A stretch of DNA of 64,000 nucleotides from Corallococcus caeni (GTDB taxonomy: Bacteria > Myxococcota > Myxococcia > Myxococcales > Myxococcaceae). The stretch is taken from the NCBI RefSeq assembly GCF_036245865.1, contig NZ_BTTW01000008.1, positions 32,396-96,395 on the forward strand. Direction: 5' to 3'. The translations under genes and the position numbers were made by a program. Positions 30,402 through 30,860 of the stretch are shown here, in pieces (position 1 is the first letter of the stretch; the number at the start of each line of letters is the position of its first letter). The notes under the pieces are model-generated. The model was not told the origin of the DNA. It ran no database searches and was given only the letters and a program-made list of their open reading frames with translations.

Positions 30402-30623
30402 CTACGGGTTGATGCAACGCCAGACGCCGCAGGAGCCTTCGCCGTTGCCGCAGTCATACTGGCTGTAGCAAGGCTTGCAGCTGGCCGAGCAGATCATCCG
30501 GACCGCCTGGTTGTCGCTCGTCTCCGACGCCGAGCCGGGAACCATGGCCAGGGCCGAGCCCGCCATGGCGCCGATGATCAGGGCAAGGCCGGGAAGGGAC
30601 CGCTTCAGTCGCGACGGCTTCAT
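30402..30623 (-). CDS. Small secreted Cys-rich peptide (73 aa precursor, 8 Cys in the mature ~45 aa)
   Basis: MKPSRLKRSLPGLALIIGAMAGSALAMVPGSA signal; mature ...RMICSASCKPCYSQYDCGNGEGSCGVWRCINP; it is the only credible part of the long antisense ORF 30402..32339. Confidence 0.5.
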   Translation of the reverse strand: MKPSRLKRSLPGLALIIGAMAGSALAMVPGSASETSDNQAVRMICSASCKPCYSQYDCGNGEGSCGVWRCINP

Positions 30624-30860
30624 GCTTCCTCCGGGGGGAATGGGGCCGGAGCATCCGGGCCCACACCGCGAGGGCATTCGAACAGACGCGCAGAGGCGAT
30701 CCAAGTTCGACGCTGGTCCAGTCTGGCGCGCTGTCCGAACCGCAATGGAGCGGGCGGCCGTGCCAGTCCGGAGCAGTGCAAGACCGTCCCAGGGCGGTGG
30801 ACAGAGGCACGGGGCTCGCAATGACTCGCGGCCAATCCCTCCCGCCCGAGCAGGTGTCCC

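Follow-up and report, generated by a model that had tools for sequence, protein, structure and literature searches.

Small exported proteins rich in disulfides, such as defensins, knottins and enzyme inhibitors, are stable scaffolds of use to designers of drugs and agrochemicals, and predatory myxobacteria have proved to yield bioactive molecules. The potato carboxypeptidase inhibitor (PCI), from a knottin family characterised by the cystine-knot connectivity I–IV, II–V, III–VI, acts through its C-terminal tail (PYVG), which inserts into the active site of the enzyme and is inhibitory, and the cysteine-rich domain CRD1 of Dickkopf carries ten cysteines. Among myxobacterial peptides, cis-defensins (corallosins and xanthusin-1) have been described, with 15 of the 20 class I peptides coming from Corallococcus; bacterial cis-defensins of classes II–IV have an unstructured tail at the N-terminus that is acidic or hydrophobic, and xanthusin-1, the sole myxobacterial defensin tested, had no antimicrobial activity (PMC11561630). 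In the same genus, a homologue of the vault protein MVP was noted already in 2013 (PMC3762200).

In this work, we analyse a 64,000-nucleotide stretch of the Corallococcus caeni genome (the window; 70% GC), in which a minus-strand open reading frame (ORF) of 645 aa spans positions 30402–32339 and is mostly antisense to a plus-strand gene. As the original prediction had it, the coding-like part of this ORF is confined to its final 73 codons (30402–30623), where GC3 is 0.89 compared to 0.65 in the same frame at 30624–30860 and 0.95–0.98 in the real neighbouring genes. On the basis of translation, GC3 and homologues, we delimit there a coding sequence of 222 bp (30402–30623, minus strand, start codon ATG at 30623–30621, stop codon at 30402–30404) for a precursor of 73 aa, MKPSRLKRSLPGLALIIGAMAGSALAMVPGSASETSDNQAVRMICSASCKPCYSQYDCGNGEGSCGVWRCINP, a translation that reproduces exactly the peptide first proposed. 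A Shine–Dalgarno sequence, GGAGGA, can be read 3 nt before the ATG (30627–30632, minus strand), and GGAGG occupies the same position in nearly all orthologues shown (AGAGG in locus L004). An exact-sequence look-up returned an identical RefSeq protein, WP_338268147.1 (‘hypothetical protein KH5H1_59930’, Corallococcus caeni); 30402–30623 is a genuine gene, already annotated in C. caeni KH5-1, which the window matches, as encoding a hypothetical protein. We also considered an in-frame ATG 18 codons upstream (within TTCGAATGC) and rejected it as the start, as indels shift its reading frame in orthologues (59 nt in L012, for example) and every annotated homologue begins with MK or MN.

We propose that a 349-bp unit, composed of an 85-bp upstream block, the coding sequence and a hairpin terminator, would express this 73-aa pre-protein. 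Residues 1–26 would serve as a Sec signal peptide that signal peptidase I (SPase I) would remove after Ala-Leu-Ala26, and in the oxidising periplasm the six invariant cysteines of the 30-residue C-terminal core would pair into three disulfides. The product would be a compact, non-cationic mini-protein of ~5 kDa (47 aa) with a floppy acidic N-terminal tail, perhaps trimmed, that would remain periplasmic or be released, for example in vesicles, and would bind a specific protein target as an inhibitor or antagonist instead of acting as a cationic membrane-active peptide. The parts of this reading differ in strength. That a real gene for an exported, cysteine-rich protein stands here independently of MVP is highly probable; the reading as a whole, that is, a Sec-exported and SPase-I-processed three-disulfide mini-protein from its own unit that acts as a binder or inhibitor and is independent of the vault gene, we hold to be rather probable; and the binder or inhibitor role, a speculative element for which sequence and structure searches returned no relative of known function, is put forward tentatively.

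A positive n-region, a hydrophobic stretch and small residues at positions −3 and −1 form the Sec/SPase I pattern. By rule-based inspection, all 14 family members examined carry an n-region with a charge of +2 to +4, an uncharged stretch of 18–21 residues (maximum KD(11) of 2.1–2.75) and A-L-[A/S] at positions −3 to −1, which agrees with the signal peptide of the original prediction; in the C. caeni protein it corresponds to residues 1–26 (MKPSRLKRSLPGLALIIGAMAGSALA; 30546–30623, minus strand), with putative SPase I cleavage after A-L-A. Inspection found neither a lipobox, as no cysteine precedes residue 45 and R-M-I-C is not one, nor a Tat motif, the window protein having no RR pair. The positive-inside rule would place the C-terminus outside the cytoplasm. 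Alignments, charge and pLDDT define residues 27–43 (MVPGSASETSDNQAVRM; 30495–30545, minus strand) as an acidic low-complexity linker or possible pro-region, which is 17–32 aa long with a charge of −3 to 0 in the homologues and has an AlphaFold pLDDT below 50. The remainder, residues 44–73 (ICSASCKPCYSQYDCGNGEGSCGVWRCINP; 30405–30494, minus strand), is a core delimited by its invariant residues, pLDDT and core dN/dS, with the cysteine framework C-x3-C-x2-C-x5-C-x6-C-x4-C. This makes six cysteines and not the eight first reported, a count that the string quoted in support of eight also gives, and they most likely form three disulfide bonds. The core reaches a pLDDT of 83–89 in the full-length AlphaFold model and averages 76 when modelled alone, and both models show two short strands and no helix. 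A cut after Ala26 would leave a mature product of 47 aa and ~4.96 kDa, slightly longer than the ~45 aa given originally. Across the family, the mature peptide has a pI of 4.3–7.6 and a net charge of −3 to +1 and is thus non-cationic, and the residues that follow the last cysteine vary (INP, TNP(M), TQP, MQ, VDTP, L or P).

The same N-terminus could instead act as an uncleaved signal anchor that fixes the cysteine knob to the inner membrane on its periplasmic side. An uncharged stretch of 18–21 residues is long for an h-region and sufficient for a membrane anchor, and the M-V-P-G that directly follows the putative cut is invariant in Corallococcus; however, all 14 members have the canonical A-x-[A/S] at −3/−1, the hydrophobic stretch includes Gly and Pro, which break helices, and distant members have GIPN or GLST in place of MVPG. 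We therefore regard anchoring as unlikely and favour a cleaved, Sec-exported product, with export, cleavage at Ala26 and the three disulfides all read from sequence patterns.

A first search across 5.8 billion proteins found 12 clusters of homologues of 73–78 aa, nearly all of them named Corallococcus, to which a profile search added four (16 in all, again of 73–78 aa), and the family comprises about 20 homologues or homologue clusters overall. In an exhaustive HMM scan of 1.84 billion representatives at 50% identity, it amounts to only four clusters. When 13 divergent sequences are aligned, the six cysteines and I44, S48, K50, G59 and G63 are invariant, and the most distant members, with 46–53% identity in the core, keep I-C-x2-S-C-K-x-C-x5-C-G-x3-G-x-C-x4-C; the variation is concentrated in the loops between cysteines. 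A codon comparison of seven genomes gave a dN/dS of 0.22–0.54 for the whole gene and 0.04–0.55 for the cysteine core, below 1 in every pair. On these grounds the gene is conserved and under purifying selection, and the question of whether the ORF is conserved in related genomes, raised with the original prediction, is answered positively by the ~20 homologues and by dN/dS <1. Neither tblastn nor a cysteine-pattern scan found a paralogue in the window, and blastn found no plasmid match. Taken together, the sequences describe a single-copy family that evolves fast and occurs almost exclusively in the genus Corallococcus. One candidate outside it, a locus from Clostridia (L007), was discarded as a spurious tblastn match that contains no ORF.

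Searches of Pfam and NCBIfam with eight members (E ≤ 10) returned nothing relevant, sequence and profile searches of the PDB with the family (HMMER, E ≤ 10) returned no match, the best Foldseek hit of the model against the PDB had an E value of 7, and a literature search with the locus tags and accessions of the gene found no papers. The family is thus one with no Pfam or NCBIfam model, structure or literature, of a general class that is familiar. As to described members of that class, it shares with the myxobacterial cis-defensins the organisms, a signal peptide and a short six-cysteine mature peptide, and with classes II–IV the acidic N-terminal tail, but it differs in having no terminal CxC and no helix in the AlphaFold models. 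Held against the cis-defensin motif C...CxxxC...GxC...CxC, the mini-protein shows CxxxC and G-S-C, with no cysteine before CxxxC and no CxC at the end, and its model does not show the helix-on-sheet (CS-alpha-beta) arrangement. It is absent from the 74 published bacterial defensins and has no sequence similarity to corallosin-1 (hhalign score 11.4). The spacing that had been called typical of knottin or defensin-like peptides therefore does not bear out that description, as CxC, a place among the 74 defensins and any Pfam, PDB or fold match are all missing.

These comparisons bear on the idea that the product is a Sec-dependent bacteriocin or defensin-like antimicrobial peptide, or the precursor of a RiPP. 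Such a role would suit a small, cysteine-rich, fast-evolving and predictedly exported protein of a predatory host, from a group that encodes cis-defensins with acidic N-terminal tails (PMC11561630). Against it stand the non-cationic character of the peptide, a framework that lacks the CxC of cis-defensins, its absence from the published set and the inactivity of xanthusin-1 (PMC11561630). Furthermore, there is no immunity gene, ABC exporter, radical-SAM or lanthionine enzyme within about 14 kb, nor is one recurrent elsewhere; the neighbours scanned (window 16.2–44.6 kb) include no RiPP maturase or exporter (radical-SAM, LanM/LanB, YcaO or C39-ABC), none recurs at the other loci and, where a RiPP precursor would be expected to have an adjacent maturase or exporter and a leader free of Sec features, this N-terminus has Sec features. 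An antimicrobial or RiPP precursor thus seems as doubtful to us as a membrane anchor.

The mini-protein also resembles PCI (1H20/4CPA), to which it is similar in size and with which it shares six cysteines and elements of I-C-x-K-P-C-x-[ST]-x-x-D-C ... G-x-W-x-C. Using a PCI sequence verified against PDB 1H20, hhalign returned a probability of 82% and a score of 25.5, compared to 7–18 for 11 other cysteine-rich peptides, and none of 600 shuffles reached the PCI score. Yet only 20 columns are aligned, the parts with Cys2 and Cys5 are passed over and Cys27 and Cys34 of PCI lie beyond the end of the alignment, so that a knot in the mini-protein would not share the connectivity of PCI; the variable tail of the family provides no conserved counterpart to the inhibitory C-terminal tail, and the knottin/PCI family (PF02977) gave no Pfam match at E ≤ 10. 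We take this partial resemblance as a lead and not as a sign of membership. A more specific form of the inhibitor idea, in which the six-cysteine core would be an undescribed disulfide-rich fold or a truncated, re-wired PCI-like knottin that, secreted or in the periplasm, inhibits a hydrolase of the bacterium itself or of its prey with high affinity and evolves in an arms race, has in our view a slim chance of being right; if true, it would represent a rare bacterial knottin-type enzyme inhibitor. Another label, ‘Dickkopf N-terminal cysteine-rich domain’, was assigned automatically to one member in UniRef. The likeness lies in a short C-x5-C-G-x-[DE] motif, and we rejected the identity with Dickkopf_N (PF04706) because no member has a Pfam match at E ≤ 10, hhalign gives 11% over 12 columns and the mini-protein has only six cysteines.

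Within the broader proposal of a mini-protein that binds a protein target, we favour a binder or inhibitor over a membrane-active antimicrobial because of the non-cationic charge, the concentration of variation in the loops and the fast evolution; the partial resemblance to PCI points the same way. An unusual cysteine framework combined with evolution much faster than that of its neighbours makes synthesis and screening of the mini-protein a reasonable undertaking at low cost.

The sequences around the gene help to define its unit. When the window was compared by blastn with loci that hold the gene in another context, the homology, to C. praedator and C. exiguus among others, was limited to the 349 bp at 30360–30708, and upstream homology with C. 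praedator and C. exiguus stops at 30705–30708. The gene moves as a self-contained 349-bp module of 85 bp upstream, coding sequence and hairpin. The upstream block (30624–30708, minus strand; 85 bp), which blastn and alignments show to travel with the gene and which would hold its promoter and 5′ leader, contains conserved TGTTCGAATGC and GGATGC motifs and an imperfect palindrome. A consensus scan found no sigma-70-like promoter in the 237 bp between the start of the gene and that of MVP, and Rfam gave only sub-threshold chance matches over 30200–31000.

At the other end of the module, a terminator-type hairpin (30359–30392) begins 9 nt past the stop codon and is followed by CUCUUUG on the strand of the gene. 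The inverted repeat predicted there is real, but it is not perfect as had been stated: its 17-nt arms are complementary at 16 of 17 positions, with an 11-bp perfect outer stem, one mismatch (C·A on the transcript of the gene, G·U on the opposite one), 3 bp and a 4-nt loop, and its fold has a z-score of −3.6 compared to shuffles. In all Corallococcus orthologues a strong hairpin lies close behind the stop, followed by CUUUU or CUCUUU, with compensatory changes such as GAG/CTC to GTG/CAC in C. coralloides (L003), and the hairpin is kept even if DUF6310, QRPTase or DUF2169 is the gene that follows. As it is kept, with compensatory changes, despite these differing neighbours and travels with the gene into unrelated contexts, we read it as the terminator of this gene, a role it had been assigned from the outset. 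A consensus scan found no U-rich terminator, but the scan requires at least five T and the hairpin here has only CUCUUUG. In the window, the hairpin also abuts the stop (30349) of a convergent gene of 229 aa, where it merely happens to lie.

The palindrome of the upstream block, GGGCCCGGA-TGC-TCCGGCCC (window 30648–30671, minus strand), surrounds the invariant GGATGC about 25–48 nt 5′ of the ATG. It can fold into a hairpin in every orthologue, with compensatory changes in some, C. exercitus and strain EGB among them; RNAalifold gives this leader hairpin −2.6 kcal/mol with no covariation term, which is weak support. The GGATGC palindrome could be an operator or a leader structure.

The module occupies a slot between MVP and a pair formed by RdgC and the 229-aa gene (window 29023–30860), which is a variable cargo site in Corallococcus. 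In this pair (window 29023–30349, plus strand), mechanically called ORFs at 28684–29673 and 29543–30349 over-extend RdgC (216 aa) and the 229-aa gene (start 29660, no Pfam match), which overlap by 14 nt according to the annotation of sister genomes. We compared the slot between the window and loci L001–L003, L008, L010–L013, L015–L018 and L022. The mini-protein gene is alone in the window and C. macrosporus; it is joined by a DUF6310/DUF5953 gene pair in L008, L012 and L013; L010 has degraded copies of the pair, and in L001 and L002 what remains of the DUF6310 start comes after the hairpin. An additional gene of 237–249 aa with no Pfam match sits beside MVP in L008, L010, L016 and L018, and the slot of C. 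terminator (L022) holds two GDSL lipase genes and no mini-protein gene. The DUF6310 (307 aa, domain C-terminal) and DUF5953 (253 aa) genes share a 4-bp overlap (L012 7309–8990; L008 8314–9995); they have no NCBIfam match, and a literature search on the pair found no papers. The pair has the look of a cassette of two genes subject to gain, loss and decay, reminiscent of toxin/immunity pairs. In C. praedator (L009, 1198–15236), two tandem polymorphic-toxin arrays (Tox-PAAR-like, AHH nuclease, Imm11, Imm49 and DUF2169) flank the relocated gene.

Such surroundings suggest an accessory gene of a polymorphic toxin/immunity cassette, of either the DUF6310–DUF5953 or the PAAR/AHH–Imm type. Where intact, the DUF6310/DUF5953 pair lies 78 bp downstream of the mini-protein gene on the same strand, L010, L001 and L002 retain its traces and, in C. 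praedator, the gene lies between Tox-PAAR-like/AHH/Imm11/Imm49 cassettes. This is nonetheless improbable, as the terminator hairpin separates the gene from DUF6310, the window, C. macrosporus and C. exiguus lack the pair yet keep the gene intact, under purifying selection, and three other contexts of the gene have no toxin genes.

More improbable still is a partnership with the vault. The MVP gene, as originally identified, starts with GTG at 30861 on the plus strand and matches Vault, Vault_2/3/4 and MVP_shoulder (E from 7 × 10−7 for Vault_4 down to 1 × 10−45), and the spacer to the start of the mini-protein gene is indeed 237 bp (30624–30860). From this head-to-head arrangement one could envisage co-regulation from a bidirectional promoter and a role as vault cargo, regulator or assembly factor, all the more as MVP and the mini-protein gene are adjacent, directly or with one gene between, in about 12 of about 17 loci of the Corallococcus type (with no intervening gene in C. 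caeni, C. exercitus, C. macrosporus and CA049B-type strains) and remain so in C. exiguus though the other flank is rearranged, which leaves some room for selective linkage. The shared divergent promoter that had been proposed does not hold, as the spacer splits at about 30708/30717 into a part that goes with the mini-protein gene and a part that goes with MVP: in C. exiguus (L016), homology is split there by ~860 bp that carry a 249-aa gene, and the MVP-proximal part (30709–30860) does not travel with the mini-protein gene. Genes of 237–249 aa also intervene in L008, L010 and L018 (C. exiguus, strain EGB and strain CP114039 are among the four cases).

In addition, each gene occurs in genomic settings that lack the other. 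No MVP lies within 6–8 kb of the mini-protein gene in C. praedator, Myxococcus sp. Y35 and loci of the KCTC 72670 type, nor on a 3.2-kb metagenome contig that carries it (L014), which makes four lineages; it sits among Tox-PAAR-like/AHH/Imm11/Imm49/DUF2169 cassettes in C. praedator, follows a gene for an Ig-domain protein in Myxococcus sp. Y35 and lies between glutamine-cyclotransferase-like and AMP-binding genes in the KCTC 72670 type. Conversely, MVP stands without the mini-protein gene in C. terminator, where the two GDSL lipase genes fill the slot from RdgC to MVP, in the loci of Melittangium and Vitiosangium and, judging by the size of the MVP family (1954 homologues at E ≤ 1 × 10−30 across Archangiaceae, cyanobacteria and others), in hundreds of other taxa. 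Conserved adjacency is thus seen only in part of Corallococcus. Inspection found no signal peptide in MVP, so that the two products are predicted to reside in different compartments, the mini-protein exported and MVP cytoplasmic, and the dN of the mini-protein gene exceeds that of the adjacent MVP 6–13-fold when the same genome pairs are compared. As many genomes break or interrupt the adjacency and MVP has a far wider distribution, a functional link is unlikely, and these comparisons show a mini-protein gene that appears independent of MVP and whose proximity to it would be a matter of genome neighbourhood and not of function. The hedge in the original prediction that the peptide may be unrelated to the vault gene is hence the better reading. 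For MVP the message is negative, in that the mini-protein gene should not serve as a clue to bacterial vault function.

The chance that these codons are no gene at all, just an antisense ORF that arose in a GC-rich genome, is next to nil: they do form the tail of a spurious 645-aa antisense ORF, but GC3, the Shine–Dalgarno sequence, the conserved length and start and stop positions, the invariant cysteine pattern and dN/dS <1 have effectively refuted it already.

The comparison with MVP also extends to synonymous sites. The dS of the mini-protein gene is 0.38–0.51 compared to 0.17–0.20 for the adjacent MVP, about 2–3-fold higher in most, not all, of the same genome pairs, and within the gene the cysteine core has a higher dS than the signal-peptide half. 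Weaker codon bias, allele exchange or a nucleotide-level constraint on the 5′ end are possible causes, and 73 codons yield noisy estimates.

A homologue of this otherwise Myxococcaceae-restricted gene is carried by BNCN01000002.1 (L006; 69% GC), titled ‘Comamonas sp. KCTC 72670’ (Betaproteobacteria), and its gene context recurs in two metagenome contigs (L019 and L020); the assembly may be mislabelled or contaminated.

On the far side of MVP, the window encodes a LysM and T6SS_VgrG3-like_C protein that resembles a peptidoglycan hydrolase (34410–36005, plus strand) and a 344-aa protein with no Pfam match (33185–34219, minus strand). Both genes are kept there in most Corallococcus loci, and some genomes have two further genes, of about 520 aa and about 330 aa (the latter HmuY-like), inserted between them and MVP.
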